Shown here in pieces: positions 7,097 to 61,987 of a DNA stretch of 64,000 bases. The translations under genes were made by a program, and so were the position numbers. The first letter of the stretch is position 1. Every line of letters starts with the position of its first letter. The stretch is from assembly GCA_016297215.1 (NCBI GenBank), contig JAEDGZ010000007.1, positions 1,312-65,311 on the forward strand, given 5' to 3'. The DNA is from Paludibacteraceae bacterium (GTDB taxonomy: Bacteria > Bacteroidota > Bacteroidia > Bacteroidales > Paludibacteraceae). A model generated the notes under the pieces. It ran no database searches and had not been told where the DNA came from. It was given only the letters and a program-made list of their open reading frames with translations.

Positions 7097-7102
7097 CCCC
7101 GC

Positions 7103-7717: not shown

Positions 7718-7730
7718 ATATTTTAATATT

Positions 7731-10178: not shown

Positions 10179-10221
10179 GTCATAACAGCAAATAAAGAAT
10201 CATATTCACAATTTCGAGAAT

Positions 10222-32394: not shown

Positions 32395-32427
32395 ATATAT
32401 ATTTTTGTTATTGTTTATTTTGCGCTG

Positions 32428-32435
32428 CAAAGGTA
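32428..32435 (-). promoter_or_regulatory. -7 box TACCTTTG upstream of the GLUG gene
   Basis: The reverse complement of caaaggta lies 34 nt upstream of ATG 32394. Confidence 0.5.
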
Positions 32436-34049: not shown

Positions 34050-34059
34050 AGTGAATTAG

Positions 34060-35220
34060 TTATTTCTTGATTTTCAATGTGAAGCCGGCGAGGTAGAGGG
34101 CGCCTATACCCATCACGAGGACGGCACCGAGGGTGCCCATTGCATCGGACATGAAGCCCATGGCAAGCGGGAAGATGGTGCCGCCGAAGAGACCCATAAT
34201 CATCAAGCCGGAAATCTCATTCTTGTGGTCGGGGTCGTGCTGGAGCGCCTGCGCAAAAGTGATGGAGAAGATGTTGGAGTTGCCAAATCCCACCAGCGCA
34301 ATGCCCACATAGAGCAACCACTTCACATCTGCCACCGCAAGGATAATCATCGCCGCAATAATCATCCCCACCGAGATGGCGAAGAACACTTTCTCCGGCA
34401 CTTTGCGCAGGATAGCCGAGCCCGAGAGGCAGCCGAGGGTACGGAAGATGAAGTAGAGCGAGGTGGCGAAGCCCGCCTCAGCCAGCGTCATCCCGAGGCG
34501 CTCGATAAGGATTTTGGGAGCAGTGGTGTTGGTGCCGACATCGATACCCACGTGGCACATGATACTCAAGAAGCAAAGCAGGATGAAGGGTTTGCCGAGC
34601 AGGCGGAAACAGTCCACCACGTTGCTACCTTTTGCCACAGGCTCTTCGTGGATAGTGGTCAGCGACAAGCATACAATAGCCACCACGCCGATGATACCAT
34701 AGACAGGGAAGAGCACGCGCCATCCCAAGCCCGCGGAGGGCAGCACCTGCGTAGCACCCCACATGGCGATATAGGGCGCCAAGAAAGAGGCGATGGCTTT
34801 CACGAACTGACCGAACGTGAGCGTTGCCGACAGGTTGCCCGTTACGATATTCGACACCAGCGGATTGAGCGAAGTCTGCATGAGGGCATTGCCGATACCC
34901 AAGAGCGAGAACGCTACCAACATCAGGGGATAAGAATTGCCGAAGATGGGCAGGATAAGCGAAAGCACCGTAACAACGATAGATAGCAGCACGGTGCGCT
35001 TTCTGCCGATTTTGTTCATCAACATGCCCGTGGGCACCGAGAAGATAAGGAACCAGAAGAAGACCAGCGAAGGCATGATGTTCGCCTGCGAGTCGGTCAA
35101 CCCGAGGTCTTGCTGCACATAGTTACTGGCAATGCCGACCAAATCGACAAAGCCCATGGTGAAGAAGCAGAGCATCACTACTGCGAGTGCGCCGAAAGAA
35201 GTTTTGTTGGAAGAAGACAT
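34060..35220 (-). CDS. MFS sugar transporter (glucose/galactose/fructose importer type)
   Basis: 386 aa and about 12 TM, of the FucP/GluP-like family. It lies between the fructokinase and GH32 genes with gaps of 10 and 4 nt. Confidence 0.85.
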   Translation of the reverse strand: MSSSNKTSFGALAVVMLCFFTMGFVDLVGIASNYVQQDLGLTDSQANIMPSLVFFWFLIFSVPTGMLMNKIGRKRTVLLSIVVTVLSLILPIFGNSYPLMLVAFSLLGIGNALMQTSLNPLVSNIVTGNLSATLTFGQFVKAIASFLAPYIAMWGATQVLPSAGLGWRVLFPVYGIIGVVAIVCLSLTTIHEEPVAKGSNVVDCFRLLGKPFILLCFLSIMCHVGIDVGTNTTAPKILIERLGMTLAEAGFATSLYFIFRTLGCLSGSAILRKVPEKVFFAISVGMIIAAMIILAVADVKWLLYVGIALVGFGNSNIFSITFAQALQHDPDHKNEISGLMIMGLFGGTIFPLAMGFMSDAMGTLGAVLVMGIGALYLAGFTLKIKK

Positions 35221-35224
35221 GGTA

Positions 35225-36889
35225 CTATTTATTTAATGTTAATGTACTTTGTGGGAAGACGAGGGAGGTGAGGCATACCTCGCCGTTATTGCCAAAGACC
35301 TCCACGGAGCAGCGGTCGATAAAGATTCGCAGGGAGGTTAGTTTGCGTTGCACGGGTGCCGTAGCCGGTACGGGGAAGTCTGCGGAGAAGTCCACTACCC
35401 CACTCTTTGAGCGGTCCACCGTCAAGGTCATCGCCTTGGGGTCGTAGGTAATCAGGAACTCTTCGCCCTGCTCGTTGCTGAGGGTAACCACTGTGGGCTT
35501 CTTTTGCGACTTGATTTTCACCACTTGGTCGAGACCCTTGCCGTCGTATTCCGGCGCAGGGCGCGAACCGAGGTAGTGTTCTCCCTTGACGGTATAGAGG
35601 AAGAGGTCGCGTGCGATGGTGTTCGCAGAACGGAATTGGCGGGTGGGCACTTGGTTGGCATACTGCCAATTGCTCATCCATCCGATGACGGTACGTCGTC
35701 CGTCGGGGACATCGCTGAAGGAGACGGTAGCATAATGGTCTTTGCCATAGTCCATCCAGCGCGTGTCGGTGTGGCGACAGGTGAAGGTCTTGCCATCCCA
35801 TTGTCCGACGAAGTACTGCGCCGCAGAGCCGCCCGCAGGTCCGCCCGGGTTGATGTTGCAGATAAGTACCCAATAGGTGTTGCCCTGCTCGTCTTTGAGG
35901 GGGAAGAGGTCGGGACATTCCCATACTCCTGAGTGGCATCCGTAGTCGCTGCCGAAGGAGGATAGATAGCGCCAGTGCTTCAGGTCATCGGAGGCATAGA
36001 AACGCATCTCCTGCCCACAGGCGAGCACGAGGTTCCACTCCCGCGTGTCTTCGTTCCAGAAGAAGTTCGGGTCGCGGAAGTCGGGTATTGCCTCGGTGAT
36101 GATAGGGTTGCCGCTGTACTTGGTGAAGGTCTGCCCGTTGTCGGTGCTATACGCCAAGGACTGGCATTGCCCCATCAGTTCTGCGGAGGTGTACATCGCC
36201 ACCACCGCACCTTTCCCGAAGCCCGCCGTACCCTCGTGGTCGATGACGGAAGAGCCGGAGAAGATTGTTCCTATCACATCGGGTTGCAGCGCCATCGGTT
36301 GGTGCTCCCAATGGATGAGGTCGGTGGAGGTGGAGTGTCCCCAACTCATGTTCTGCCACAGCGAGCAATACGGATTGTACTGGTAGTAGAGGTGCCAAAC
36401 GCCATCGCGGTAGAACATACCGTTGGGGTCATTCATCCAGCCGTAGAGGGGCGTGTGGTGGTACTCGGGGCGATAGGGGTCTCGGTTGACGGTGTCGAAA
36501 GTGTCGGACAGCGTTATCTCGCTCCATGCGATGTAGTCCATGGGCGATAGTTCGCGCTGACGCTCTCCGTCCGGCTGGTTCCACACATGTACAGCGAGAA
36601 GGAGTTGGTCGCGCCGAAACTCGGTCAAGTCCATGGGCACGAAGTAATCCACTTTGCCTTTGGCTGCCAAGCGCAAGATGTTGGTGCGGACAATTTGCCC
36701 GTTCTCAATCACCTGCATGCGGTACTCGGGGGCTGCTTCCTCAATAGGAATCAACAGGTAGCGTTCGTCGCCGCTGACACGGATAAGCATGTCGCGCACG
36801 CCGGAGCGGGAGAACTGCACCTCGCCCGCCATAGCAACCGCACAGATAAGCAGGCAGGCAGCTATCAAAAAGTTCTTTACGTTCTTCAT
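35225..36889 (-). CDS. Glycoside hydrolase family 32 (exo-beta-fructosidase type)
   Basis: The start is at MKNVKNFLIAACLLICAVAMA (36889); the ORF-track extension to 37075 is rejected. GH32 signatures present are WMNDPNG, FRDP and ECPD. Confidence 0.9.
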   Translation of the reverse strand: MKNVKNFLIAACLLICAVAMAGEVQFSRSGVRDMLIRVSGDERYLLIPIEEAAPEYRMQVIENGQIVRTNILRLAAKGKVDYFVPMDLTEFRRDQLLLAVHVWNQPDGERQRELSPMDYIAWSEITLSDTFDTVNRDPYRPEYHHTPLYGWMNDPNGMFYRDGVWHLYYQYNPYCSLWQNMSWGHSTSTDLIHWEHQPMALQPDVIGTIFSGSSVIDHEGTAGFGKGAVVAMYTSAELMGQCQSLAYSTDNGQTFTKYSGNPIITEAIPDFRDPNFFWNEDTREWNLVLACGQEMRFYASDDLKHWRYLSSFGSDYGCHSGVWECPDLFPLKDEQGNTYWVLICNINPGGPAGGSAAQYFVGQWDGKTFTCRHTDTRWMDYGKDHYATVSFSDVPDGRRTVIGWMSNWQYANQVPTRQFRSANTIARDLFLYTVKGEHYLGSRPAPEYDGKGLDQVVKIKSQKKPTVVTLSNEQGEEFLITYDPKAMTLTVDRSKSGVVDFSADFPVPATAPVQRKLTSLRIFIDRCSVEVFGNNGEVCLTSLVFPQSTLTLNK

Positions 36890-36891
36890 AA

Positions 36892-36925
36892 AGGATTTTA
36901 GATAAAGGATTAAGGATGAAAGACT
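36892..36925. repeat. GGATDAA heptamer array in the GH32-GH32 intercistronic gap
   Basis: The sequence aggattttagataaaggattaaggatgaaagactc directly abuts the ATG at 36889. Confidence 0.85.
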
Positions 36926-36972
36926 CATATGTTTCGTCTCATTTCCAAATGGTCTCCAAGTCGGTTCGTTGT

Positions 36973-38625
36973 TTATTGTTGATACGAAACGACTTCCGAC
37001 ACGCTCAGAGTGCCCGAATAGCAGTTGATACTCCAACAGTTGCGGGCAATGCCATAGACACGGTTGGTGTAGCAAACATTATCGTTTACATACATCACCA
37101 AGACGGAGTTGTCGGTGTAGATATCTATGCGGTACGTGTTGTCAGAGGGGGTTGGGAAAGTGTAGCCGTCGATGTTGGCAATAAAGCCTTTGCCGTTTTC
37201 TCCCTCTTGCTCGAAGTTGATTTTGCGGCGGGTCTCGCTCTCCGGATTGAGCACTAAAGAATAGTACACGCCTGAGTCAGCCTCGCATACCGCGGAAGTG
37301 CCGCGACAAAGAGAGATACCAAACCTGTCGCTCGCGCCTTCGGTTCTCACCGTGAGGCGGATATGGTTGTGGTAGCCCAAGCGATTGAAGAGGAGATTGC
37401 TGCCCTCTTGCAGGACATACTTGCCGTCGGTTTCTTGCACCTCGCCTTGCCGACGCATCACCACCACCTTCTGCTCTTGGGCGTATTTCTGCCGAATAGC
37501 GTCCACCTCTCCGAGCGATAGGCTACCATCGGGATGCTGCACCACGCGGTGCGCCACCATGCTGCCTGCCCATTCGGGTGCTTGTTCACCCACATTGGCA
37601 TTGTCTTTTCCGCTACGGGTAGGACACCATCCCCAGAGATAGCGGTTCTGTCCATCGCTTGCCGTCTTGCCTGCATACAAGCCGCGGCTATCCAAGAAGC
37701 CCTCATGGTCATCGGGCCAAATACCTGCATCGTTTTTCGTGGTTGCTTTGAGTTCTTCGAGGGTACGCCCTTTGAAATACTGCACCCGACGCACCGCACT
37801 GTGGATCTCGCTATAGACGAGATACCACCATTCGCCCATTTGGAACACATCGGGGCACTCGTAGAAACGGTCCCACATCATGGTCATGAAGACCCCTTGG
37901 TGTGTCCAGTCGGTGAGGTTAGCCGATGTGAACTCCGCCAACACGCCTTTGCCATTGGCGGTGGTGGAGACGAGCATATGGTAAATGCCGTCATCGGTAC
38001 GGAAGATACAGGGGTCGCGGAAGTCGTTGGACGAATAGCCGTAGTCGCGCCCACGCAAAAGGAAGGTGCGGCTCTTGGTCCAAGTCTTGAAATCGGAGGA
38101 AACCGCCATCTGTACTATCTCGCGGCTATCCTCTGCTTGCAACAATTCGTAGCGATGACCTGTATAGAAACAGTAGTACAGTCCCTGCTCCTCGCTATAT
38201 ACGAAGCAGCCTGTACCCACGGCAGCATCCTGCTCGTTGATACCGCCGCAAGGGATGATTTCGTCCAGGGAGGTATAGTGCGCCACGTCTGCCGTCTCCA
38301 CGCCCCAAATAGGATGGTAAGTGCCTACGGGGTTGGGACGGAAATCTTGCAGGTAGCCAATCTTAAAGGTCTTGCTCTGAGGGTCGTAGAGCGGCATCAC
38401 ATCCCCCACATAGCCTGCATAGGGACGGTAATAGGTATCTGACTTCGGCTCATCGGAGGAAGCAAAGAGATAGGTAGTATGCTCCCAGTCGCGTTCGGGC
38501 ACGGGGACGATACGCTGCTCGCTGCATGCAGAAAGCAGGAGAAGGAGGAAAAAGGGACCAAAAAAGCCTACCCCAGCCCTCCCTAAAGGGAGGGAGAGAT
38601 TAGTTAGAAATTGTGCGGTTTTCAT
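36973..38625 (-). CDS. Glycoside hydrolase family 32, lipoprotein (surface endo-fructanase candidate)
   Basis: 550 aa with lipobox LLLLLSAC and GH32-type FRDPCIF and YECPDVF. The first block is divergent (MPLYDP instead of WMNDPNG). Its position is analogous to BT1760. Confidence 0.8.
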   Translation of the reverse strand: MKTAQFLTNLSLPLGRAGVGFFGPFFLLLLLSACSEQRIVPVPERDWEHTTYLFASSDEPKSDTYYRPYAGYVGDVMPLYDPQSKTFKIGYLQDFRPNPVGTYHPIWGVETADVAHYTSLDEIIPCGGINEQDAAVGTGCFVYSEEQGLYYCFYTGHRYELLQAEDSREIVQMAVSSDFKTWTKSRTFLLRGRDYGYSSNDFRDPCIFRTDDGIYHMLVSTTANGKGVLAEFTSANLTDWTHQGVFMTMMWDRFYECPDVFQMGEWWYLVYSEIHSAVRRVQYFKGRTLEELKATTKNDAGIWPDDHEGFLDSRGLYAGKTASDGQNRYLWGWCPTRSGKDNANVGEQAPEWAGSMVAHRVVQHPDGSLSLGEVDAIRQKYAQEQKVVVMRRQGEVQETDGKYVLQEGSNLLFNRLGYHNHIRLTVRTEGASDRFGISLCRGTSAVCEADSGVYYSLVLNPESETRRKINFEQEGENGKGFIANIDGYTFPTPSDNTYRIDIYTDNSVLVMYVNDNVCYTNRVYGIARNCWSINCYSGTLSVSEVVSYQQ

Positions 38626-40045
38626 AAGTGGTCAGTGGTTGGTGGTTAGTGGTCAGATAGTTGATGGCGTTCAGGGTCATTTGGTCGATGTTGCTATGGT
38701 AACCGGTATAGACTCCGTCGATGGAATACCAGTCGAAGCAGCCGGAGCCAATACAGAGGATGGCGGGCTTGTCTGCGGTGTGAGCATACTCCCATACGAC
38801 AACGGCACCGTCGCCTCCGCGGGCTATCGCCTTGGCTTGTGCGAGTTGCTCGAAGTCGGTAAGCGTAGGATATCCTCCCCAGTCGTCGCCTATGTGCCAC
38901 TGGGCAGTGGAGTTGGTGATACGGTAGCCCGCGTCGCAAGTGTAGATAGTGGCAGGGTCGGTGCCTTTGGCTAAGTCGACAAAGAGCGGATGATTAGCGT
39001 CCACGGCGAAGAAACTCCACGGCTCGTTGGTGGTCTCGGGTTTGTCTTCATTTCCTCCCCAGCAGTTGTTGGGGAAGCGGTCGGTGGGGTTGTTGCCGTT
39101 GAGGCTGAGATAGCCCGGCAGATAGGTAGCGTAGCGCGAGAGGAGCAATGTGCCTCCGTTGTCTATGTACTTTTGGAACGCAGCCACTGCTGCTACGGCT
39201 TCCTGGGCAGCATTCTCGAAAGCCGCCTTGCCGTCCACGCCGCCATCTCGATGGAAATGCCACCAAATAACCTTGCAGGCGGATAGTTCCACCTTGCCGC
39301 CGGCAAAATCCGTCAAAGAGCAATACTGCGCTTGCTCTATCTCGGAGAGCATCCAATCGCAGGCACGGCGCTCCTCGGGCAGCAACTGCTCTATCGTGGC
39401 GGCAGTGCCCACAAACAGTGCGGCGGGTGCATCCATCTTATCCACATGTACGGTATAGACATTGGTGAGCGTTTGGTTGGATACCGTATAGGTTACCGGT
39501 TTCGAGAAATCCGCCGGCACACCGCTCTCGGGCGAAACTACGGCACCATCGGACACCTTGATAACGGGTGTCATCGCTGTGATATTCTCGGAAGAGGGTA
39601 CATAGACACGTATGGTTTTGTCCTCTTGGTTGATACCACCCACATATCGACTATTCAGCACGAAAGAGGTAATCTGTGCCTTTGCGAAACGCACCATGAG
39701 CGTCCATTCCTGATAGACATCTCCGTTGGTAACCACGATAGCCCTATTCGTGAGCAGGTTGAGACTATCTCCAACGTTCACATCTGCCGTTGCGCCCGCG
39801 CTGACAGACAGTTGGGAAAGCACCATAGCGGACACCACATAGCCCTCCGGCACATAGACCGTTACCGTGCGGGCGGGAACATCTATGGTGCCCGCATATT
39901 GTTCATCCAGCACCAGCGACTCTATCCGGCAGTCGCCAACGATATCCAGATTGCCCGCCAAATGTCCTTTGCAGCCGGCGAACAGCAGGACAGAGACCAA
40001 GCATACCGTTATAACTTGACAATTTGACAATTTACAATTTCTCAT
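38600..40045 (-). CDS. DUF4960-like surface glycan-binding lipoprotein of the fructan PUL
   Basis: 481 aa with lipobox VLLFAGC and N-terminal Ig-like repeats. It lies directly downstream of susD, as the SGBP does in fructan PULs. Its last 26 nt overlap the next ORF. Confidence 0.65.
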   Translation of the reverse strand: MRNCKLSNCQVITVCLVSVLLFAGCKGHLAGNLDIVGDCRIESLVLDEQYAGTIDVPARTVTVYVPEGYVVSAMVLSQLSVSAGATADVNVGDSLNLLTNRAIVVTNGDVYQEWTLMVRFAKAQITSFVLNSRYVGGINQEDKTIRVYVPSSENITAMTPVIKVSDGAVVSPESGVPADFSKPVTYTVSNQTLTNVYTVHVDKMDAPAALFVGTAATIEQLLPEERRACDWMLSEIEQAQYCSLTDFAGGKVELSACKVIWWHFHRDGGVDGKAAFENAAQEAVAAVAAFQKYIDNGGTLLLSRYATYLPGYLSLNGNNPTDRFPNNCWGGNEDKPETTNEPWSFFAVDANHPLFVDLAKGTDPATIYTCDAGYRITNSTAQWHIGDDWGGYPTLTDFEQLAQAKAIARGGDGAVVVWEYAHTADKPAILCIGSGCFDWYSIDGVYTGYHSNIDQMTLNAINYLTTNHQPLTTYENRTISN

Positions 40046-40124
40046 ATTTTTCTTTGTTATCTGATATAGGAATCACTAACTAATCACTAACTAATCACTA
40101 ACTAATCGCTAACTAATCACTAAC
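40016..40124. repeat. Two adjacent microsatellite arrays at the susD/DUF4960 junction
   Basis: Array ttgacaat ttgacaat ttacaat ttctcat (40016-40043) encodes the first residues MRNCKLSNCQ. Array aatcactaact x5 lies at 40071-40124. Confidence 0.9.
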
Positions 40125-40147
40125 TTTTGACGGCTTATAGTCGCGTG

Positions 40148-41884
40148 TCACCATCCGCCGATGTTTTGCGTATAGTGCCCGTTGGATGCAGCAATCTGCG
40201 AATAGGGTATGGGCAGGTACTCGTCTTTGTTTTTCGTGAAATGCGCTCCGGCGTAGATAGCGCAGTTAGCAGCCTCGGTAGCGTAGTAGTTGTTGAGGAT
40301 AATGTCTGCTTCTCCCCAGCGCACGAGGTCGAAGAAACGCTCCGACTCCATCCCCATCTCCAAGCGGCGCTCTGTCTTCACCAGAGCCAAGGTTTCCTCT
40401 TGGCTGTATGTGCCTGTGTATTGCCCCACACTCATCTTCACCCCATAAGCCGTTTCATACCCTGCGAGGATACCCGTCTGAGCACTCTGCAAAGCACGCG
40501 AGCGCAGACGATTGACCAAGCCCACCGCCTCGGCGGCACCGCCTTCGTTCAATTGTACCAACGCTTCCGCACGCTCCAGCAACACATCCGCGTAGCGGAA
40601 CACGATACGGTTCATCGGGCTGCCCCACCACGAGCCTTTTATCAGGTACTCTGAGTCGGGGTCCACATTGTGCTTGAGCGAGATATTGTAACCATAGAGT
40701 CCGTTGGAGCGGCTCCATACGTTGGTCTTCGCCATCATATAGTTCGGATTGAACTCGTAGGGCAGCCCCGGCATGCCCACCGTGAGGAAGAGTCGCGGGT
40801 CAGCATAGTCGGTGGTCATGTCGTAGTTGGTAGTGTTGGTGTTCCCCGTCAGAGCAACAGGCAAGCCGGCAGCAGTGGTGCGATAGGCATTCACAAGGTT
40901 TTGACTGGGCTTGTAGAAATCGCAGCCGCCGTCGGTAACCCCCGGGATATTGGGCACGCAAAGACCGTAACTCCAATTGAGGTTGCCAAAGGTTGTGCCA
41001 TCGTCCATCGAATACTGGATAGCCCAGATACTCTCTACGCCGTTCTCATACTGCGGCTCAGGGCGGAAATTATTGTGGAAGTCCGGCTCCAAGCCATAGC
41101 CTGCGTACCATTGTTCATCGGAATAATAGAGCACCTTTTTGAGGTCTTCCTTGTCTGTACTCGTAACGGCATGGGACATGGGGTCGTCTTGGCGGTAGGC
41201 TTTGTAGAGATACACCTTGGTGAGAAAAGCAGCCGCAGCGGCTTTGTTGGCACGCCCTTGCTCGGGCTGCACCTGAGGCAGATGGGCAAAAGCGTACTCC
41301 AAATCGCGTATGATAAGCCCCCACCCTTCGTCATTGGTATAGGTAGTGTTGCTCAGCGCGTTGTATTCATCGGGAGACAGGTTCGCGTCCACCACAAACG
41401 GTATGTTCTTATACAAGCGTTTGAGCAGGAAATGACCATACGCACGCAGGAAATACATCTCGGCGAGGCGCGTATCACGCAGCGTGTAGGTACTATCCAT
41501 AGGCTCCAATACGGCAATAGCGGTGTTCACACGCGAGATACAATTATACAAGCGCACCCACATATCGTTGATGTTCCAGTTGGTGGTCAGCACTCCCTGC
41601 TGGATTTCCAACTGGTGAAATACATCGCCATCGGAGGTGCCGTTACCACCTTTGTAGGCGTCGTCGGAGCGTACATCGAAATTCCACATAGAGAAAGAGG
41701 AGTTGATGTCCTCCGCGGACATGAAGATAGCATAAGCCGATATGACCAACTCGTCGATGCGCTCGGGGTCGTTCACCTGCGTATCGGAAAGCGTACCTTG
41801 CGGCATTTGGCTATTGAGGAAGTCGCAACCTGTCAGCGACAGACCCGCCAACACAATGAAAGATATAATGATATGCTTTTTCAT
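40148..41884 (-). CDS. SusD/RagB family nutrient-binding outer-membrane lipoprotein
   Basis: 578 aa with lipobox LSLTGC and SusD-like TPR-type content. It starts 17 nt after the susC stop. Confidence 0.9.
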   Translation of the reverse strand: MKKHIIISFIVLAGLSLTGCDFLNSQMPQGTLSDTQVNDPERIDELVISAYAIFMSAEDINSSFSMWNFDVRSDDAYKGGNGTSDGDVFHQLEIQQGVLTTNWNINDMWVRLYNCISRVNTAIAVLEPMDSTYTLRDTRLAEMYFLRAYGHFLLKRLYKNIPFVVDANLSPDEYNALSNTTYTNDEGWGLIIRDLEYAFAHLPQVQPEQGRANKAAAAAFLTKVYLYKAYRQDDPMSHAVTSTDKEDLKKVLYYSDEQWYAGYGLEPDFHNNFRPEPQYENGVESIWAIQYSMDDGTTFGNLNWSYGLCVPNIPGVTDGGCDFYKPSQNLVNAYRTTAAGLPVALTGNTNTTNYDMTTDYADPRLFLTVGMPGLPYEFNPNYMMAKTNVWSRSNGLYGYNISLKHNVDPDSEYLIKGSWWGSPMNRIVFRYADVLLERAEALVQLNEGGAAEAVGLVNRLRSRALQSAQTGILAGYETAYGVKMSVGQYTGTYSQEETLALVKTERRLEMGMESERFFDLVRWGEADIILNNYYATEAANCAIYAGAHFTKNKDEYLPIPYSQIAASNGHYTQNIGGW

Positions 41885-41900
41885 ATTACCTATTACTTAA

Positions 41901-44900
41901 TCAGAAGTTCAACGATGTGCCTACGGTGATATTCAGTGCATTGGGATAGCCGTAGTTCGGGTTTTCAGGGTCAACGCCCGTGAACGAGCGGGAATGGATA
42001 GTGAACACGTTTTGCGCCGACACGAAGAAGCGCCAACGCTCCATGTGCAGTTTCTGCAAGGCTTTCTCCGGCAGGTTGTAGCCCAACTGGATATTCTTTA
42101 GTTTAAGATAACTACCGTCTTCCACCCAATAGGAAGATACGCGCTTCTCGTTGTTGTTATCGGCAATGGATAGCGCGGGAATATCCGAATCGGGATTGGT
42201 GGGGCTCCACGCATCCAGCAGGCGCGTTCCTTTGTTCAGATTGCTGATATTCAGACCGGACCAGAGGTCGGTCTCTTTCTTCAAGTCGGAGATGATATCC
42301 ACGCCCTGCACTCCTTGGAAGAAAAGCGTCAGGTCGAAGCTAAAATACTGCAAATAGATATTCAAGCCGTAGGAGATAGCGGGCACGGGGTTGTAAATCC
42401 AATCTTGGTCTGCCTCCGTAATCTTGCCATCGCCGTTCAGGTCTTTCCACATGATTCGTCCCAATCCCGCTCCCGTCTGCTCGGCATGGTTTTCGATATC
42501 ATCTTGCGAGCGGAAGATGCCTTCTGCCACATAGCCCACCTGTGCGCCCATCGGATGCCCCACTACCGACTTCACGCCATTGCCACCAAACGTACCGTTG
42601 GCAGCCACCGTCTCCGGCAGTTTGGTAATCATATTGTCGTAGTGCGACAGGTTGGCGTTGATATCCCATCGGAAGCCGTTGGTCTCGCCCCTGGTACCCA
42701 ACATCAGTTCCTCACCGATATTGCGCATAGAGCCGGCATTCACCCACTGGCTTGCCCCCTCACCCATAGCGGCAATACCCGCCATGTAGAGCAATATATC
42801 ATCTGTATTCTTGTAGAACCAATCGAAACTACCATACAACTTCTGCCCCCAAAGCGAGAAGTCGATACCGGCATTGGTCTGTGTGGTGGTCTCCCACTTG
42901 AGGTCGTCGTTGCCAATCTGCGTGCGTTTCATACCCGATGGCAAGGTGCTGCCACCGTTGGTGCCGGCTATGTCGTAACTCGTACCATAACTCTGTCCGC
43001 CGCTCTCGTTCACACCATAGCCGCTGACGTAGATGGTATAACGCGCCAAGTTGGAAATCTCTTGGTTACCCGTCTGCCCCCACGAGACACGAATCTTCAA
43101 GTCATCGAGCACGTGCTTGGTGGACTGCATCCAACGCTCTTCGCTCAGACGCCAGCCCAGCGAGACGGCAGGGAAAGTAGCAAACTGGTTATTCCGACCA
43201 AATCGGCTGGAGCCATCGCGGCGCACCGTGAGCGACGCCATATAGCGATTGTCATAAGAGTAGTTGGCTTTTGCGAAATAGGACAGCAGCGAGTAGCCCT
43301 CCGAGGAGCCGTATGCCTGCGCCTTGCCCGTACCCGCATCGGGCCACATATAATCGGGTGTGAGCAAGATATAGTCTTGTTTGTAGCCCGAGAAATACTC
43401 TGACTGCTCGCGGTTCAACTCCACGCCCACCATCACATCGCCGCGGTGCTTCTTCACATCGAAGTTATAGGTCGCTACGGCATTCCACATCCAGCGCATC
43501 CAGTGCTCCTGCTTGGCTTCCACCGCATTGGTCTCGGTAGCGACGTTGCCTTCCGTAACGGGATAGGTGAAGATACGCTGCTTCTTCTGCGAGTAGTCGA
43601 TACCTGCCGTTGTACGGATATGCAGCCCCTTATACGCCTCCACATCCACAAACGCGTTTCCGAACAGACGCCAATAGGTGTAGCGGTTGTCGGCATTGCG
43701 CTGCAAGCGCGCCACGGGGTTCTCTCTATCGGGGTAACCTCCCACGGGACCCGCGTATTCGCCATCCTTGGTATAGACCGGCAGCGAGGGATTGAACTGC
43801 AAGGCATTCTGCAAGATGCCCCCGGGTGCCTGCACCTCCGAGGTGCGGGACAAGGTGAAGTTCTCGCCGATGGTTACCCTGTCGTTGAGGAAAGAATAGT
43901 CGGAATTAGCACGCGCAGAGAATCGGTCGAAATCCGACTCCTTGATGACACCCATGTTCTTGTAGTAGTCCACCGAGAAGAAACTGCGTCCGTGCTTGCC
44001 GCCTTGGCTCACGGAGAGGTTATACTGCTGCACGATACCCGTGCGCGTGATTTGGTCGAACCAATCGGTGTCCGCTGCAGGGGTAGTGCCTGCGTCATCC
44101 AAATACTTGCGCATCTGCATACCTTTCAGCACAGGGTAGCCATTGGCGTCATAGCCCCATTGGTAAGCATAGCCCAAGCCGTTGGTGTTCGGGTCGAGCC
44201 CGTCATTCACATACGCCTGCCACAAGCATTGTCCGAACTGCTCGCTGTTGAGCACCGACATTCGATTCACATATTGGCTCGCCGTTACGCTGGCATCGAA
44301 GGTTACCTTCACCTTACCCTCCTCACCTTTCTTCGTGGTGATGATGATAACCCCATTTGCCGCACGCGAACCGTAAATAGAGGCAGAGGCAGCATCTTTC
44401 AGCACCTGGATAGACTCTATGTCGTTGCCGTTGAGTTCGTGCATGCCGCCTTTGGTGGGCACACCGTCAATGATATAGAGCGGATCGTTGTTGTTGAGCG
44501 TGCCGATACCACGAATACGCACGGTGGCGCTACCCGAAGGAGACCCGTCGGCAGAGATGTTCACACCTGCAATCTTGCCCTGCATGGCTTTCATCGGGTT
44601 GTTCTCGTTCTGCTTCTTCAGGTCGCCCACACTCACCACGCTCACCGCACCCGTCAAGTCTGCCTTGCGTTGCGCGGTATAGCCAGTAACGACCAACTCC
44701 TCCAACTGCTCCGTGTTCTCCGACATCAGTATTTCCATATTGGATTGGGCAGGCAAGGCTAAATCCTTGTAACCGATATAACTAACTAACAGAGTCGCAC
44801 TTTCTTGTACCTCCAGCACGAAGTTACCGTCAAAGTCGGTAACCGTACCGTTTTGCGTGCCCTGCTCCAATATGGAAACGCCGATGAGCGGTTCGCGAGA

Positions 44901-45005
44901 GGTTTCATCCGACACATTGCCTTGAATGGTCATAACCTCTGCGCACAACGTTAATATAGAGCAAACTATTAACGCGGCAACGGTCAATAATCGATGTTTC
45001 GGCAT
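41901..45005 (-). CDS. SusC/RagA family TonB-dependent receptor
   Basis: 1034 aa with an N-terminal carboxypeptidase-regulatory-like domain (IQGNVSDETSREPLIGVSI). A plug (TonB box region VVTGY) and a C-terminal beta-barrel ending in ..TVGTSLNF follow. Confidence 0.93.
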   Translation of the reverse strand: MPKHRLLTVAALIVCSILTLCAEVMTIQGNVSDETSREPLIGVSILEQGTQNGTVTDFDGNFVLEVQESATLLVSYIGYKDLALPAQSNMEILMSENTEQLEELVVTGYTAQRKADLTGAVSVVSVGDLKKQNENNPMKAMQGKIAGVNISADGSPSGSATVRIRGIGTLNNNDPLYIIDGVPTKGGMHELNGNDIESIQVLKDAASASIYGSRAANGVIIITTKKGEEGKVKVTFDASVTASQYVNRMSVLNSEQFGQCLWQAYVNDGLDPNTNGLGYAYQWGYDANGYPVLKGMQMRKYLDDAGTTPAADTDWFDQITRTGIVQQYNLSVSQGGKHGRSFFSVDYYKNMGVIKESDFDRFSARANSDYSFLNDRVTIGENFTLSRTSEVQAPGGILQNALQFNPSLPVYTKDGEYAGPVGGYPDRENPVARLQRNADNRYTYWRLFGNAFVDVEAYKGLHIRTTAGIDYSQKKQRIFTYPVTEGNVATETNAVEAKQEHWMRWMWNAVATYNFDVKKHRGDVMVGVELNREQSEYFSGYKQDYILLTPDYMWPDAGTGKAQAYGSSEGYSLLSYFAKANYSYDNRYMASLTVRRDGSSRFGRNNQFATFPAVSLGWRLSEERWMQSTKHVLDDLKIRVSWGQTGNQEISNLARYTIYVSGYGVNESGGQSYGTSYDIAGTNGGSTLPSGMKRTQIGNDDLKWETTTQTNAGIDFSLWGQKLYGSFDWFYKNTDDILLYMAGIAAMGEGASQWVNAGSMRNIGEELMLGTRGETNGFRWDINANLSHYDNMITKLPETVAANGTFGGNGVKSVVGHPMGAQVGYVAEGIFRSQDDIENHAEQTGAGLGRIMWKDLNGDGKITEADQDWIYNPVPAISYGLNIYLQYFSFDLTLFFQGVQGVDIISDLKKETDLWSGLNISNLNKGTRLLDAWSPTNPDSDIPALSIADNNNEKRVSSYWVEDGSYLKLKNIQLGYNLPEKALQKLHMERWRFFVSAQNVFTIHSRSFTGVDPENPNYGYPNALNITVGTSLNF

Positions 45006-45107
45006 TAGAATTTGAGTTTTTAATAACTTATGCAGTTAGCATGGTACTTACAACCAACTTTGCCAACTACATAAGTTACAAATTGATAATGATTGTTACA
45101 AAGACTA

Positions 45108-46037
45108 TTACTTATTGGTAACCATTACTTTTTTACCATTCACAATATATAGCCCATTGCTATTTATCGTCTCTACACGACGACCCAACAAATCATAGAT
45201 ACCTTCTACCAAAGGAGATACCTTATCCAGGCTTTGATAAGAAGTAGCCGTATTCTGCTTCTGTACAAGCACAATGTCGGTCATGTTAAAGGCTTCCTGC
45301 TCTTCTTTATTGCCTTGAATCATCAGGCGGTCAGAACTAACATCGTTGATAACCGTCAACGGATTCACCTTTGTCAAGTCCAATTCAACGAAATTCTGAC
45401 CACCCTCTGACTTATACTGCAAAGCATAATCTTCAGCCGGATCAATCGGACCTATTTTAGCAATAACACCGTCTTCTTTCCAGTTTGCCAACAAGTTCAG
45501 TACAAAACCATTCTCCGGTCCTTCGTGAAAAATACGCATAGAAGCGTATTTGCTCAAATCTTCTGCAGTCAAAGCCTCTTTGAAAAGTTCAAGCGTATTC
45601 CAAGTATCCACCCAGAAATAGCCCGTCCAGATAGTCTCGCCCATTTTCATGTTGCCTGCTTTGCCATCCAATATCTCTATCATTTTGATACCGAACGACG
45701 CACCGCAAAGTTCCATACCATACAATTTGCAGGTATCCAACATGGCTTGCGTCATAAAGCACTCATACGATTCTGCTCCAGCAATGTTGCTAAATCGACT
45801 GCCAGGTAATTTTTGACCATTCGATTTCAACTCAATCACATCCGTAGCATTATTCAACGTTAGTTTCAACAAGTTTCCCTGTTGGCAGGATGCAAAATAC
45901 TCCTTGGAAATGGTGAAAGTTTTTGCCCAAGTTACGACCGTGTCTGTCTGACCTTCTGCGGGAGTCCAAATAGTCTCGGCAGTTACCATTGCACAACTCA
46001 TTAAAGCAGTTGCAAGCATTAAGAATACTTTTTTCAT
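45108..46037 (-). CDS. Hypothetical secreted protein with a T9SS C-terminal sorting domain, embedded in the fructan PUL
   Basis: 309 aa with signal peptide MKKVFLMLATALMSCAMVTA and C-terminal tail EGIYDLLGRRVETINSNGLYIVNGKKVMV. It is visibly more AT-rich than its neighbours. Confidence 0.7.
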   Translation of the reverse strand: MKKVFLMLATALMSCAMVTAETIWTPAEGQTDTVVTWAKTFTISKEYFASCQQGNLLKLTLNNATDVIELKSNGQKLPGSRFSNIAGAESYECFMTQAMLDTCKLYGMELCGASFGIKMIEILDGKAGNMKMGETIWTGYFWVDTWNTLELFKEALTAEDLSKYASMRIFHEGPENGFVLNLLANWKEDGVIAKIGPIDPAEDYALQYKSEGGQNFVELDLTKVNPLTVINDVSSDRLMIQGNKEEQEAFNMTDIVLVQKQNTATSYQSLDKVSPLVEGIYDLLGRRVETINSNGLYIVNGKKVMVTNK

Positions 46038-46121
46038 GACTTTAAAATTTTAAGTGTTAGAAATTCTATTTTACATTCTCGGGCATAGATAGTACTCTAT
46101 TCCCATCCTGTTTTTCGGCAG

Positions 46122-46129
46122 CAAAAGTA
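46122..46129 (-). promoter_or_regulatory. -7 box TACTTTTG upstream of the PUL structural genes
   Basis: The reverse complement of caaaagta lies 85 nt upstream of ATG 46037. Confidence 0.45.
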
Positions 46130-46184
46130 GTGCATTTTTTGCATACAGACTATAACAAATGTTGCAACATATAGCACATTTGCT

Positions 46185-46223
46185 TCAAAATAAAAAGAAA
46201 CATCGCACGATGCAATGTTTCTT
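46185..46223 (-). terminator. Rho-independent terminator of the PUL regulator gene
   Basis: The stem gaaacatcgca / tgcaatgtttc is followed on the minus strand by tttttatttt. Confidence 0.7.
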
Positions 46224-46333
46224 GTACTGTCTGCAACATTTGTTGTGATTCGTATGTACTTCGTAGTTTTCGTACTTTATCGTACTTTTCGTAATCTACG
46301 TAAACTACGAAAACTACGTTTGCCAAACGAAAA

Positions 46334-48034
46334 TTACTTCCCTCTTGTGGCGGGGGTAGTGCCGAAGAACTCGCGGTAGCACTTCGAGAAATAAGACGGA
46401 GAGGTGAAACCCACGGAATAAGCGACCTGCTGGATAGTCAGGTCGGTATTGAGCAACATCTGCTTTGCCTTACGCAAACGAATATGGCGTATTAACTCCA
46501 CGGGAGAGACTCCCATCAAGGATTTGGTTTTTCGGAAGAGTTGTGCGCGGCTCATGCTCAACTCGTCGCTCAGCGCTTCTACATTGAACTCGGAATCATC
46601 CAAGTGGCGCTCTATCGTATTCTGCAGTTGCTCCACGAAGCGTTCGTCCACCGACTGTTCGGATTTCGTGCGCTCCAGCGCCGCGGTCATGTCCTCCAAC
46701 TGCTTTTGTTGCTGCGCCACTATGCGCGCACTCTCTTCCCGCTCGCGCTGCACACGCAACGAGTACTGATAGACCCGAAAGAGCACCACCGCCAAGACCA
46801 CGAGCAGCAGCAAGAAAGAGACTAACAAGATTAGGGCAATACGCTGGGCGCGTGCTGTATCCCACAAGCGTTTGAAACGACTTTCCAATTCATTGGAGAC
46901 TGCCACCTGTCGGTCTATCTCCTCGGCAATCTGCTGCAAGGGGAGTGCCGCATCGCGGTCTATCAACAGCGTCGGCAGACGCACGATACGCTCATAGGGT
47001 TCGCCATGCAGTATCTTCACCGCCGTCTGTATCACCAAATCGCCGCGACTGGGATAGGTAGCAGTCATGTCTATCTCGCCTTTGAGCAACGCCTCCACGC
47101 CACCGCCCTTGCCGACGATGCCGTCCACGCCCATTATTTTGGGGGCATCTAAATCTCCCTTAAAGGGAGACTTAGAGGTGGCGGCATCGGTTTGCTTACT
47201 GTTAGAGGCTAAAATATTCCCCCTTCCCATGCGGTTTTTGCAGGCTTCGTAAGCACCTATTGCCATCGGGTCGTTCTGCGCTATAATGGCGTCTATTTGC
47301 GGGTAGAGAGATAATAACGAGTCGGTCACCACTCTGGCATTCTCGCGGAACCATGCTCCGCAGGCAGCCCCCACTATCTGCACCTCGGGGTGTTCTTGCA
47401 GGCTGTCCATCATGCCTTTGTGCCGCCACACCATCGGCGTGGAGCCGGGCAAGCCTTGTATTTCCAAGACGCGCAAGGGACGTCCTTCGGGTACGATAGA
47501 GAGCAACCACTGCGCCATGAGTTGCCCCACTGCGTAGTTGTCCCCACCGATGAAAGCCGTCCATTTCTCGCCCGATACCTGCCTGTCCGCCACTATCACG
47601 GGAATCCCCGCGTCGTAGGCGCGGCTCACGGCAGGCTTCACCTCTTCCGCCTCATTGGGAGATACAATGAGCAAATCGACTCGCTCTGCTATGAAAGAGT
47701 CGATTTGCTGACACTGAATCTCACTGTTGTCGCTCGCCTGACGAATATGCAGGGTTAAGTCGGGATGGAATATCAGTTCCTGCTCCATCTCCTTGTGCAT
47801 ACGCATACGCCACGCGTCATCCGAACATTGGCTCACGCCAATGATATACTGCGGAGACGGCTTCGGCGCAGAGCACCCCATCAGGCATGCTACGAGGCAG
47901 GCACAAAGAAGACCCACCCCTGCCCTACATGACCCCCTCCAACTCCCCCTACGAGAGCACCAAAAAAAACAGAGATTTTTCGGGGACCCCGCAAGGGGGA
48001 GAGAAAAATATACTCGTTTAGCGGTTGAGAGCAT
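46334..48034 (-). CDS. Membrane-anchored periplasmic sugar-binding / AraC-HTH one-component regulator (start uncertain: 48034 or 48100)
   Basis: A type I periplasmic binding domain (IGVSQCSDDAW..LIVSPNE..VIVADR..IIAQNDPMA) is followed by one TM helix (IALILLVSFLLLLVVLAVVLF). About 45 aa of coiled coil and an AraC HTH (..QVAYSVGFTSPSYFSKCYREFFG) complete it. No HisKA, HATPase or receiver motifs are present. Confidence 0.8.
   Translation of the reverse strand: MLSTAKRVYFSLPLAGSPKNLCFFWCSRRGSWRGSCRAGVGLLCACLVACLMGCSAPKPSPQYIIGVSQCSDDAWRMRMHKEMEQELIFHPDLTLHIRQASDNSEIQCQQIDSFIAERVDLLIVSPNEAEEVKPAVSRAYDAGIPVIVADRQVSGEKWTAFIGGDNYAVGQLMAQWLLSIVPEGRPLRVLEIQGLPGSTPMVWRHKGMMDSLQEHPEVQIVGAACGAWFRENARVVTDSLLSLYPQIDAIIAQNDPMAIGAYEACKNRMGRGNILASNSKQTDAATSKSPFKGDLDAPKIMGVDGIVGKGGGVEALLKGEIDMTATYPSRGDLVIQTAVKILHGEPYERIVRLPTLLIDRDAALPLQQIAEEIDRQVAVSNELESRFKRLWDTARAQRIALILLVSFLLLLVVLAVVLFRVYQYSLRVQREREESARIVAQQQKQLEDMTAALERTKSEQSVDERFVEQLQNTIERHLDDSEFNVEALSDELSMSRAQLFRKTKSLMGVSPVELIRHIRLRKAKQMLLNTDLTIQQVAYSVGFTSPSYFSKCYREFFGTTPATRGK
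47941..48003 (+). repeat. ~60-nt GC-hairpin element, copy 2
   Basis: The sequence aactccccctacgagagcaccaaaaaaaacagagatttttcggggaccccgcaagggggagag has the same orientation as copy 1 at 5631-5690. Confidence 0.9.
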
Positions 48035-48058
48035 TTGAAACTTGAAACTTTTTACAAA

Positions 48059-48085
48059 GCGGGCGAGACGCCCGCGCACCCGGAC
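48059..48085 (+). repeat. REP-like hairpin
   Basis: The sequence is gcgggcgagacgcccgcgcacccggac. Confidence 0.9.
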
Positions 48086-48099
48086 AAAAGACCTTACCA

Positions 48100-49371
48100 T
48101 TATTCCGTCGGGATGTCTTTATTGACGTTCTTGCTGCCTACCAGTGCATACCAGAGGATATACGCAAGCCCTGCCACCGGCACGATATACGAGAACAGGT
48201 AGGAAGTGTGGTCTGCCAAAAGGTTCTGGAAGAAAGGCAGGATACCGCCGCCGCATACCAGCGCCATGAAGATACCGCTCGCTGCCGGCGTGTATTTACC
48301 CAAGCCCTCGGCGGAGAGGTTGAAGATACTACCCCACATCACGCTCGTACACAGACCGCAGCAGAACATCATAATCATGCTAATAGGCAATTCCATACCC
48401 TTGAAGGTAATCACCCACGTCTCGGGGAAGAACATCACGCAGAGCAACAGCACGATACCTACACCTGCCGCCACCGACAGCATCGCCTTGCTGCTCACCT
48501 TGCCGCCAACAACGCCACCCAAGAGACGACCGCACATCATCATCAGCCAGTAGAAGCCAATCACCGTACCCGCGATAGCAGGACCTACGGCAGGGGTGCC
48601 GGACATATAGAGGTTAGCCGTGTTGGGAATACCTACCTCCACACCTACATAGCAGAAGATAGCCACCGCACCCAGCACGAAATGGCGGAACGACAGCGGA
48701 CTGTACTTATCCGCATTCTTATCCTCTTTAAGCGCGGCAGCCCTGCGTTGCTCAGGAGTTTCGATATGCGGCTCGGGAATCTTGGTGAGGGCAATAATAA
48801 CAAACGCCACCAAGAAGATAGCCATAGCAATCAACATCGCAGGTGCCGCATCGCCTACGCTGGCTTTCGCTGCCTCGCCACCGATGAGGTAACCCAAGAG
48901 GATAGGTGCGATAGTGCCGCCGATGGAGTTCATAGACCCACCGAACTGCACCAGTTGGTTACCGCGCTTGCCGCCACCGCCAAGGGTATTGAGCATGGGG
49001 TTCACCACCACGTTGAGCAAGCACATACTCATACCGGCAATGAAAGCACCCAACACATACACACCGAAACTCTCCGCAGGCCCGCTCAACCACTGGATAC
49101 CTACGCCCACAAAACCTACGGCTGCCGCCAGCAGGGAGGTGAATTTATAGCCTTTGCGTTTGAGGATGACACCCGCGGGCACACCCAAGACGGCGTACGC
49201 AATGAAGTTAGCCAAGGTACCCAGTTGCGACATGGCGTTGCTGGCTCCAAACTGATTTTTCACAATGACGCCCATCGAACCCGCAAAGTTCGTAACAAAG
49301 GCTATCATAAAGAAAAGGAGGAACATCACCGCGATGGGGAGGATGTTGCGATTAGTTGATTGTTTTGTCAT
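48100..49371 (-). CDS. MFS sugar:H+ symporter (FucP / glucose-galactose transporter family)
   Basis: 423 aa and 12 TM, with N-terminus MTKQSTNRNILPIAVMFLLFFMIAFVTNF typical of FucP-like permeases. Confidence 0.85.
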   Translation of the reverse strand: MTKQSTNRNILPIAVMFLLFFMIAFVTNFAGSMGVIVKNQFGASNAMSQLGTLANFIAYAVLGVPAGVILKRKGYKFTSLLAAAVGFVGVGIQWLSGPAESFGVYVLGAFIAGMSMCLLNVVVNPMLNTLGGGGKRGNQLVQFGGSMNSIGGTIAPILLGYLIGGEAAKASVGDAAPAMLIAMAIFLVAFVIIALTKIPEPHIETPEQRRAAALKEDKNADKYSPLSFRHFVLGAVAIFCYVGVEVGIPNTANLYMSGTPAVGPAIAGTVIGFYWLMMMCGRLLGGVVGGKVSSKAMLSVAAGVGIVLLLCVMFFPETWVITFKGMELPISMIMMFCCGLCTSVMWGSIFNLSAEGLGKYTPAASGIFMALVCGGGILPFFQNLLADHTSYLFSYIVPVAGLAYILWYALVGSKNVNKDIPTE

Positions 49372-59140: not shown

Positions 59141-60418
59141 ATGAAGGAACGAATACGGAAAATAGCCCGCTCGGAGTTGGTACGTAACTCTGCTAAATTG
59201 CTTTCTGCAAATGTAATTGCACAAGCGATAGGGCTCTTGGTCTATCCCATCCTGACCCGTCTCTACAGCCCCGAAGATTTCGGACTATTAAACCTGTTTC
59301 TAAGCATCGGCGGGGTGCTGGTGCTTCTTTCTACCGCAGAGTATCAGTATGCCATCGTTCTTCCGAAAAAAGATGAGGAAGCGCGTGGATTGGTGCATAT
59401 ATGCGGTTTCCTGCTTCTCATCACTACGGGCATAGTGCTCTTGAGTGTACCCTTTTCCAAACCTATTGCTCGCTTATTTAATACGCCAGAATTAGCCAAC
59501 TGGTATTGGTTAATGCCGCTGTTTGTGTTTGTGATGGGGCTATGGAATATATTAAATTACTGGTATATACGGCGGAAACAATTTGGAGCCATATCTCGCT
59601 ATCAGATTTCTCAGTCGGTATTATCGTCTCTAACGAAGATAGCAATGGGATGCATAAAGAATATCCATTGTGGATTAATTATTGGAAGTTTATTTGGTCC
59701 GCTGTTACCAATGGTCGTTAACCTATATCATGCAACAGCAGATAAGTTGCTACGCCATTTACAGCCTAAAAAGAATTATCGGACACTGATGTCTCAGTAC
59801 AAAAATTTTCCTTTATTCTCCTTTCCCCGAGCTTTGTTAAACCAGTTGGGCAGTAACATGCCCACCTTGTTGTTAACGCCATTCTTTGGCTTAACAGAAA
59901 TCGGTTTTTTTAGTATGAGTATCACTCTTGGGTTTCGTCCTATTAATATGCTTTGTAGTTCTATCTACCAAGTAATGTATCAACGTTTAGCAGAAAGGGT
60001 GATAAACAAGGATAGTATTTGGAAACTATTAGCCAAATATATTATCAGAACAGGTTCTATTTCTATATTGTTTTTTCTGATCTTATTTTTTATATTACCA
60101 GACATAGTAACTTTCTTATTAGGCGAAGAATGGCTAACTACCAGCAAATATATTCAACTCATGTTGCCTTGGTTATTGATGGTCATTTTAGTTTCTACCA
60201 CAAGCTACATAACTGACATATTTCAGCGTCAAAGAGGATATATGATTTTTGAGATTATTTATGTATTAAGTCGTTTAGCAGCACTAATTATCGGAATAAT
60301 CTATGATTCTATGTATATATCCATCAGTTTATTTTGTATTGTCAGCAGCATTATTCTTTTACTTGAATTTATCTGGTTTGCACATATAATATACACATAT
60401 GAAGAATCTATCAAATAG
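59141..60418 (+). CDS. Wzx-like oligosaccharide/polysaccharide flippase (MOP superfamily)
   Basis: About 425 aa from MKERIRKIARSELVRNSAKLLSANVIAQAIGLLVYPILTRLYSPEDFG, with multiple TM helices. The gene is AT-rich. Confidence 0.8.
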   Translation: MKERIRKIARSELVRNSAKLLSANVIAQAIGLLVYPILTRLYSPEDFGLLNLFLSIGGVLVLLSTAEYQYAIVLPKKDEEARGLVHICGFLLLITTGIVLLSVPFSKPIARLFNTPELANWYWLMPLFVFVMGLWNILNYWYIRRKQFGAISRYQISQSVLSSLTKIAMGCIKNIHCGLIIGSLFGPLLPMVVNLYHATADKLLRHLQPKKNYRTLMSQYKNFPLFSFPRALLNQLGSNMPTLLLTPFFGLTEIGFFSMSITLGFRPINMLCSSIYQVMYQRLAERVINKDSIWKLLAKYIIRTGSISILFFLILFFILPDIVTFLLGEEWLTTSKYIQLMLPWLLMVILVSTTSYITDIFQRQRGYMIFEIIYVLSRLAALIIGIIYDSMYISISLFCIVSSIILLLEFIWFAHIIYTYEESIK

Positions 60419-61976: not shown

Positions 61977-61987
61977 CTGAGAAACAA

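Follow-up and report, generated by a model that had tools for sequence, protein, structure and literature searches.

We analysed a 64-kb window (the whole stretch of 64,000 nucleotides under study, positions 1,312 to 65,311 of contig JAEDGZ010000007.1, assembly GCA_016297215.1) from a Paludibacteraceae bacterium, in which the gene of a putative sugar-sensing transcription regulator heads a polysaccharide utilization locus (PUL) for fructan. The maximal open reading frame (ORF) of the regulator (46334–48100, minus strand, like all of the regulator's features given below; stop codon 46334–46336) runs uninterrupted over 588 codons. It encodes a lipobox signal, a periplasmic sugar-binding domain, a single transmembrane (TM) helix, a short cytoplasmic linker and a DNA-binding domain of the AraC type. 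In gut Bacteroidota, the use of glycans is regulated mainly by hybrid two-component systems (HTCSs), which are defined by a full phosphorelay fused into a single chain. The regulator in the window possesses the two ends of such a protein and none of its phosphorelay.

The true start of the regulator probably lies downstream of the first codon of the maximal ORF, at the ATG of M23 (48034) or the GTG of V62 (47917). The first ~60 codons are probably noncoding and not translated, because alignments with homologues cover the protein only from about residue 60 onward and because the ratio of nonsynonymous to synonymous substitution rates (dN/dS) of residues 1–61 is 0.5–0.67, compared with 0.08–0.19 for the remainder. 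In the sequence alignment, the hydrophobic core of a signal peptide (47873–47926) ends in a lipobox (LMGC, with Cys76 at 47873–47875). C76 is invariant in an alignment of 13 short-form sequences, that is, of relatives with the same domain content, and is aligned in the three full-length (long-form) HTCSs shown with them. The lipobox signal indicates that the sensor domain sits outside the cytoplasmic membrane.

The sensor (residues 82–400; 46901–47857) is a periplasmic type-I sugar-binding domain of the BT1754 type together with the start of a stalk helix, as identified by Pfam, by comparison with the PDB and by AlphaFold2/Foldseek. By sequence, it matches the fructose-binding domain of BT1754 from Bacteroides thetaiotaomicron (PDB 2x7x) with an E-value of 1.5e-63. 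The AlphaFold model of the regulator (mean pLDDT 85, with the sensor mostly >90) matches 2x7x in Foldseek with a TM-score of 0.92 and a root-mean-square deviation of 2.2 Å. Residues DDAWR, ADR, RH, W, QND and GVD, at presumed canonical sugar-contact positions of the ribose-binding-protein type, do not vary across the short-form alignment, and 2x7x has the same residues at most of them. BT1754 binds monomeric fructose and is required for induction of its PUL, and we infer from the sequence that fructose is also the ligand of the regulator studied here. The second lobe of the sensor contains a low-complexity, lineage-specific insertion (residues 290–322; 47135–47233), recognized in the alignments and the AlphaFold2 model. 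BT1754 and most homologues lack this insertion, and one relative (P0005) has a longer, Asn/Gly-rich version. It is predicted to be disordered (pLDDT <50 at model residues 243–257).

The TM helix (residues 421–441; 46778–46840) is a hydrophobic stretch that is kept across the family and, once the signal peptide is removed, is the only membrane span. It is followed by a helical cytoplasmic linker of 46 residues (residues 442–487; 46640–46777), delimited by alignment to the long forms, and AlphaFold2 predicts one unbroken 97-residue helix (residues 382–478) that passes through the stalk, the membrane and the linker. Exactly 46 residues separate the TM helix from the DNA-binding domain in each of 108 sequences, and the linker has the lowest dN/dS of the gene (0.02–0.12 against six close relatives). 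Within the 46-residue class, hydrophobicity recurs most strongly with a period of 3.5, the a/d register continues into the first helix of the DNA-binding domain, and residues E453, R454, Q464, L468 and L475 are invariant or nearly so. The AraC-type DNA-binding domain (residues 488–588, with its first helix starting near residue 483; 46337–46639) aligns to the corresponding HTCS domain and matches the HTCS chain 12aw. Its HTH_18 and HTH_AraC hits correspond to the bipartite helix-turn-helix region of ~100 residues that characterizes the AraC/XylS family.

A Pfam scan of the regulator returned Peripla_BP_4 (residues 93–364, 7e-41) and HTH_18 (residues 510–584, 4e-23), and no match to HisKA, HATPase_c or Response_reg at E ≤ 0.01. 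A tblastn search of the entire 64-kb window with the histidine kinase (HK) and receiver (REC) segments of the nearest full-length relative, P0091, likewise gave no match. There is no space for a hidden HK or REC domain, because the 46 residues alone separate the TM helix from F488, the first anchor residue of the DNA-binding domain. Hidden or divergent HK and REC domains are rejected on the basis of these searches, Pfam finding none in the ORF at E ≤ 0.01 and tblastn with the HK and REC segments none in the window. NCBIfam assigns the protein to no curated family and reports partial likeness to sugar-binding proteins and AraC regulators. The original prediction held that the sensor and AraC output of an HTCS are present here with no kinase, phosphotransfer or receiver domain, and that only ~45 residues lie between a single TM helix and the AraC helix-turn-helix; the Pfam scan, the tblastn search and the alignment bear out the former, and the positions of the TM helix and the 46-residue linker agree with the latter.

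As judged from the alignments, the regulator descends from a BT1754-type fructose-sensing HTCS by an in-frame deletion that runs from the H-box through the ATPase and receiver domains. Specifically, relative to full-length proteins the missing block starts shortly ahead of the kinase H-box and stops shortly ahead of the DNA-binding domain's first helix, and the linker sequence ...LERTK aligns with ...KEATKAK, which precedes FFTNVSH in the long forms. The linker, by the same alignment, derives from the signalling helix of the ancestral kinase and the first turns of helix 1 of its dimerization and histidine phosphotransfer (DHp) domain. The regulator shares with BT1754 the sensor (2X7X), the layout of lipobox, stalk and TM helix, the AraC output and the place at the head of a fructan PUL, but lacks HisKA from the H-box on, HATPase_c, the receiver and the linker between receiver and DNA-binding domain, ~390–400 residues in all. 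Without these domains there can be neither a phosphorelay nor receiver-mediated inhibition of the DNA-binding domain. In HTCSs, the receiver keeps the AraC domain inactive through an S/CHIP-D-K contact, as described by Gao, Wu and Stock (PMC11253607). Consistent with loss of this contact, the receiver-contact residues of the DNA-binding domain are relaxed in the short forms, with conservation of D falling from 78% to 44% and that of K from 96% to 74%.

The regulator thus retains three HTCS features, namely the periplasmic sensor, the membrane span and the C-terminal AraC domain, and lacks the other three, namely HisKA with its H-box, HATPase_c and the receiver with its Asp and S/CHIP motifs. 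We therefore regard it as a derivative of an HTCS that should not be filed as an HTCS. In the domain scan, the input and output domains occupy one polypeptide with no phosphotransfer modules, which is the arrangement of a one-component system. A like topology is found in SusR of the Bacteroides starch PUL, which has an N-terminal periplasmic sugar sensor, a membrane span, a DNA-binding domain at the C terminus and no phosphotransfer, and which activates the adjacent PUL (PMC3878776). The sensor and DNA-binding domains of SusR are, however, unrelated to those of the regulator, for which Pfam gives only periplasmic binding protein (PBP) and AraC families. With ToxR and CadC the regulator would share the principle of a single-pass, membrane-tethered one-component protein that passes a periplasmic signal to DNA binding without phosphorylation, but its topology is reversed, its DNA-binding domain is AraC-type and not an N-terminal winged helix, and there is no homology. 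The proposal of ToxR-like direct signalling in the original prediction therefore survives as a principle, and as the most economical, though inferred, reading of the architecture; it does not hold for the ToxR topology or for the DNA-binding family.

A first homology search returned 98 short proteins (398–592 residues, with PBP and helix-turn-helix domains only) at 93% to 44% identity and 22 full-length HTCSs (918–953 residues), a bimodal distribution with no intermediate lengths. In a scan of GTDB with one genome per species, 115 genomes contain a relative, and the best 80 of these 115 all carry short forms. The hosts of short forms are nearly all Paludibacteraceae or uncultured Bacteroidales metagenome-assembled genomes (MAGs) from gut and rumen. 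The reading frame is intact in >80 species-level genomes, down to ~40% identity. Against six close relatives, dN/dS is 0.08–0.19 for the whole gene and 0.08–0.22 for the sugar-binding domain, stalk and TM helix. This purifying selection, together with membership of a large conserved family, indicates that the regulator is not a decaying or truncated remnant, a possibility that had been raised at the outset.

The fructan PUL proper (33132–45005, minus strand) was annotated with Pfam and NCBIfam. In the direction of transcription, its genes encode SusC (41901–45005), SusD (40148–41884), a DUF4960 surface glycan-binding protein (SGBP) of the levan type (38600–40045), a BT1760-like GH32 enzyme (36973–38625), a second GH32 enzyme (35225–37075), a major facilitator superfamily (MFS) transporter (34060–35220) and a PfkB-type sugar kinase (33132–34049). 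The gene order given by the original prediction, from kinase through SusC to regulator, is correct, with all genes on the minus strand. Besides the probably untranslated start of the maximal ORF and the lipobox Cys, it had overlooked an ORF between the regulator and SusC (45108–46037, minus strand), the first gene after the PUL promoter, which encodes a secreted or lipoprotein-like protein of 309 residues. This protein has no Pfam or NCBIfam match, and its single-sequence AlphaFold2 model (pLDDT 36) is unusable. Homologues with 28–49% identity are present in 25 of 80 related fructan PULs, where they usually follow the BT1760-like GH32 gene; we know of no counterpart in the fructan PUL of B. 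thetaiotaomicron.

The position of the regulator is conserved. Of the related loci, 62 extend for at least 4 kb downstream; among these, fructan-PUL genes lie within 9 kb downstream of the regulator in 57 and GH32 genes in 51, and in 38 the next same-strand gene, within 600 bp, is SusC. P0091, the closest full-length form, occupies the same slot, before SusC-SusD-SGBP-GH32-MFS-PfkB. No HK gene is found within 10 kb of the regulator in any of 80 related loci and a REC gene in only one, and a split system with an HK or REC encoded next door is rejected on this basis, since neither lies within 10 kb in 79 of the 80. Two MAGs contain more than one such regulator. In L080, the PUL most like that of the window (SusC and SusD 70% identical) is headed by a long-form HTCS, and a short-form regulator with a divergent SusC/SusD/GH32 PUL comes directly after it; Sheep_1_mag_28 encodes two short paralogues (L065 and L066), each with its own PUL.

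On the other side of the regulator, a GluP-type MFS transporter gene (48100–49371, minus strand) ends one base inside the maximal ORF, in a stop/ATG overlap. It is 89–97% identical in only three of the closest relatives (L002, L006 and L007), and ~45% identical or absent elsewhere. Further away, the window contains two stretches of low G+C content (6000–10200 and 60000–62000; 0.35–0.43 compared with ~0.52–0.57 elsewhere), the first of which includes a gene for an 815-residue BspA-type leucine-rich-repeat protein (7731–10178), and a 1899-residue ORF with GLUG motifs (26770–32469).

The intergenic region that follows the regulator contains a candidate operator (46142–46256, minus strand). It consists of TGCAACATTTGT at 46155–46166 on the minus strand, an adjacent AAATGTGCTAT block at 46171–46183, and an inverted copy at 46232–46243 on the plus strand. 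The only perfect matches to TGCAACAWWTGT in the 64-kb window are those at 46155–46166(−) and 46232–46243(+), both between the regulator stop codon and the predicted −7 box. At 51 of 76 related loci, TGCAACA is found in the first 300 nt behind the regulator, compared with an expectation of 1.4. The operator block is kept in loci whose regulators are only 64% identical, where it takes the form of two repeats 21 bp apart, which is the repeat spacing reported for HTCS operators (PMC3878776). TGCAACA-type sites likewise precede SusC at a long-form locus (L081), which suggests that DNA recognition was retained through the loss of the phosphorelay. About 22 nt downstream of the operator block lies TACTTTTG (46122–46129, minus strand), read from the sequence as the Bacteroidota-type −7 promoter box of the PUL operon; the same TAnnTTTG element stands at the equivalent place in related loci.

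The same region contains further repeats. Directly after the regulator stop codon, 46249–46337 is a degenerate array of 9–10-nt units of the TACGAAAAC and TACGTAGTT types, in imperfect direct and inverted repeats, and its closest relatives (L001, L002 and L005) have arrays of a similar kind. A 13-nt inverted repeat (AAGAAACATCGCA / TGCAATGTTTCTT) at 46195–46223, with a run of T after it on the coding strand, resembles a terminator of the regulator gene. The k-mer GAAACAT, which lies in the arms of this repeat, is itself enriched downstream of the regulator (40 of 76 related loci), and the repeat may double as a binding site. An Rfam scan of 44900–48300 gave no significant match.

The regulator belongs to a wider family in which phosphorelay parts have been lost repeatedly. 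A search of 1.84 billion representatives clustered at 50% identity yielded 530 relatives at E < 1e-30, and among the best 150 of these, 92 are full HTCSs, about 53 are PBP-TM-AraC short forms, and 8 are forms of 720–800 residues that lack HATPase_c but have HisKA, receiver and AraC domains. A first tree gave no information, as all its long forms came from one tight clade. In the neighbour-joining tree of the wider set, short and long forms are intermingled, the nearest relative of many short representatives is a long form, and parsimony requires 30–37 changes across bootstraps, compared with 48 with shuffled labels. As the count of ~30 is inflated by neighbour-joining noise at 35–50% identity, we claim only events with distinct junctions.

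Pairwise mapping of these junctions reveals at least six different deletions. In P0201, compared with P0232, residues 404–794 are missing and the junction falls exactly at the H-box; in P0138, the deletion reaches from the TM helix into the receiver, of which the relic GADAYITKPF is left; in P0243, which heads a minimal fructan PUL, the junction follows a retained DHp whose His is now Tyr; and in P0265, the TM helix is joined to the region behind the receiver. Populous deletion lineages have 159, 212 and 296 members. Some other short representatives are singletons and could be recent deletion variants. The wider tree and the junction mapping show that the short forms are polyphyletic, ruling out a single origin.

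The BT1754 relatives without HATPase_c (~720–760 residues; P0144, P0164, P0188, P0199, P0226, P0231, P0241 and P0345–P0349) are abundant, with as many as 831 members in a cluster, and are found in cultured Prevotellaceae (Segatella baroniae and Prevotella sp. P3-122). By motif search, 9 of the 11 examined have no recognizable H-box, and 10 of the 11 keep the receiver Asp and S/CHIP motifs. These Prevotellaceae proteins belong to the same family and follow the same trend of losing phosphorelay parts, but they retain a pair of HisKA-like helices, the receiver domain with its Asp, and the S/CHIP motif, all of which are lacking in the window's regulator. A further Prevotella variant of 603 residues (P0393, 40 cluster members) combines sugar-binding and AraC domains with an extra PF04237 domain. 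Database entries give the short and ATPase-less forms no name other than 'substrate-binding domain-containing protein' or two COG labels. According to comparative work on Bacteroides, every HTCS has the full domain set (PMC3878776), and in full-text literature outside subscription journals we found no description of the PBP-TM-AraC architecture.

We propose that the regulator is anchored in the membrane and activates transcription of the adjacent fructan PUL as a one-component protein, derived from an HTCS and signalling directly across the membrane, and we give this reading a probability of about 0.6. In the proposed mechanism, the lipid-anchored periplasmic domain would bind fructose freed from fructan, and closing of the sugar-binding domain would alter the packing of a homodimer. 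The continuous helix formed by stalk, TM segment and coiled-coil linker would then carry the change to the cytoplasm, where the two tethered AraC domains would be brought or turned into position on the TGCAACA-type sites that lie just upstream of the PUL promoter, and transcription would be activated with no phosphoryl transfer involved. Control of the adjacent PUL is suggested by the conserved position of the gene at the head of fructan PULs and by the conserved operator-like sites, while dimerization, control of DNA binding by the ligand, and activation as opposed to repression are presumed. HTCSs have been located on their target DNA by chromatin immunoprecipitation with an antibody to the periplasmic domain (PMC3404733), implying that they bind DNA while tethered to the membrane, and pairs of tethered AraC domains are known to activate, according to work cited in PMC11253607.

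Several observations count against this proposal, or against its stricter forms. According to Gao et al. (PMC11253607), an AraC domain that is tethered in a dimer and lacks a receiver might be constitutively active. AlphaFold2 places a low-confidence hinge (residues 474–482) between the coiled coil and the DNA-binding domain, and the coupling may not be rigid. Within the same clade, linkers have been remodelled to other fixed lengths (36, 39, 50 or 27–29 residues), and the 36-residue class contains a conserved proline; in the independent short lineages, the linkers are unrelated, range from 33 to 146 residues and are in some cases plainly disordered. Together, the hinge, the remodelled linkers of the clade and the disordered linkers elsewhere argue against transmission by strict helical phase and for control by proximity or dimerization at most. 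A rigid continuous helix from the membrane into the DNA-binding domain is accordingly supported only in part: the heptad register fits, but the predicted hinge and the variable linker lengths of subclades do not. Furthermore, a goat-rumen Paludibacteraceae MAG (L080) has a long and a short form 10 kb apart, each heading its own PUL, and the genome studied here may encode a full-length HTCS paralogue outside the 64-kb window.

Several of these observations can be read as signs of a constitutive tethered activator, in which the AraC dimer would always be bound to DNA and set a basal or licensing level of transcription, and induction by fructan would come from global carbon regulators, small RNAs or transport. 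The need, argued by Gao et al., for a receiver to silence a dimer-tethered DNA-binding domain in HTCSs (PMC11253607), the hinge before the DNA-binding domain, and the long disordered linkers of several independent short lineages, which could hardly pass a conformational signal, all agree with such an activator. A ligand-blind anchor, however, would need neither the strong purifying selection on sensor, stalk and TM helix (dN/dS 0.08–0.22) and on the linker (0.02–0.12) nor the invariant residues at the presumed canonical sugar-contact positions, and we consider constitutive activity unlikely. Regulated proteolysis, in which sugar binding would trigger cleavage in or near the membrane and the released fragment of linker and DNA-binding domain would be the active species, strikes us as improbable. 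Other membrane-tethered regulators are controlled by proteolysis, and a single-pass topology with a flexible hinge is compatible with it, but strict conservation of linker length is not expected of a tether that is cut, no protease gene is conserved beside the regulator in 80 loci, and the parent HTCSs are found on DNA together with their periplasmic domain (PMC3404733).

A dependence on partners, with the short protein acting as modulator or dominant negative in a heterodimer with a full-length BT1754-type paralogue, or being controlled in trans by an unlinked kinase or receiver, would make use of the homology of its sensor, stalk and TM segments to those of the long forms, and the neighbouring long- and short-form genes of L080, each with a PUL, and the paired short paralogues of one MAG (L065 and L066) would suit it. 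On the other hand, in most genomes the short form has its own PUL and operator-like sites, the 64-kb window contains no HTCS, and, as described above, HK genes are absent and REC genes nearly so from the surroundings of the 80 related loci; we judge this arrangement, too, to be improbable. That the gene is a non-functional HTCS remnant left by deletion of the middle is an idea to which we attach almost no weight. An internal deletion in an HTCS clearly gave rise to the gene, and some short representatives are singletons, but dN/dS of 0.08–0.19, an intact frame in >80 species-level genomes, and conservation of position and operator speak against decay, and a remnant or pseudogene is rejected on the strength of dN/dS and conservation.

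Beyond direct signalling by the individual regulator, we put forward a broader interpretation, tentatively and at slightly less than even odds: in the fructose-sensing branch of HTCSs, the phosphorelay may be dispensable and may have been discarded many times, by at least six junction-distinct deletions and possibly 30 or more, in addition to the ATPase-less intermediates, and the Paludibacteraceae may have settled on a fixed 46-residue coiled coil that would pass sugar binding directly to a tethered AraC dimer. What gives the finding its value is less the single gene than the conserved clade and the repeated loss of the phosphorelay. The existence of a large set of conserved and repeatedly evolved relatives with no kinase or receiver means that the sensor-TM module and the AraC domain of an HTCS can be coupled in another way, and the short forms offer a direct handle on transmembrane signalling in the HTCS family. 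The fructan regulator of an entire family of gut and rumen bacteria will escape surveys of PUL regulators that are keyed on HTCS domains. The compact architecture could also serve as an engineerable sugar biosensor. If signalling does proceed directly through the 46-residue coiled coil, the regulator would be a natural minimal transmembrane switch from sugar to transcription, and the family would constitute a natural experiment on what the kinase and the receiver add to an HTCS.

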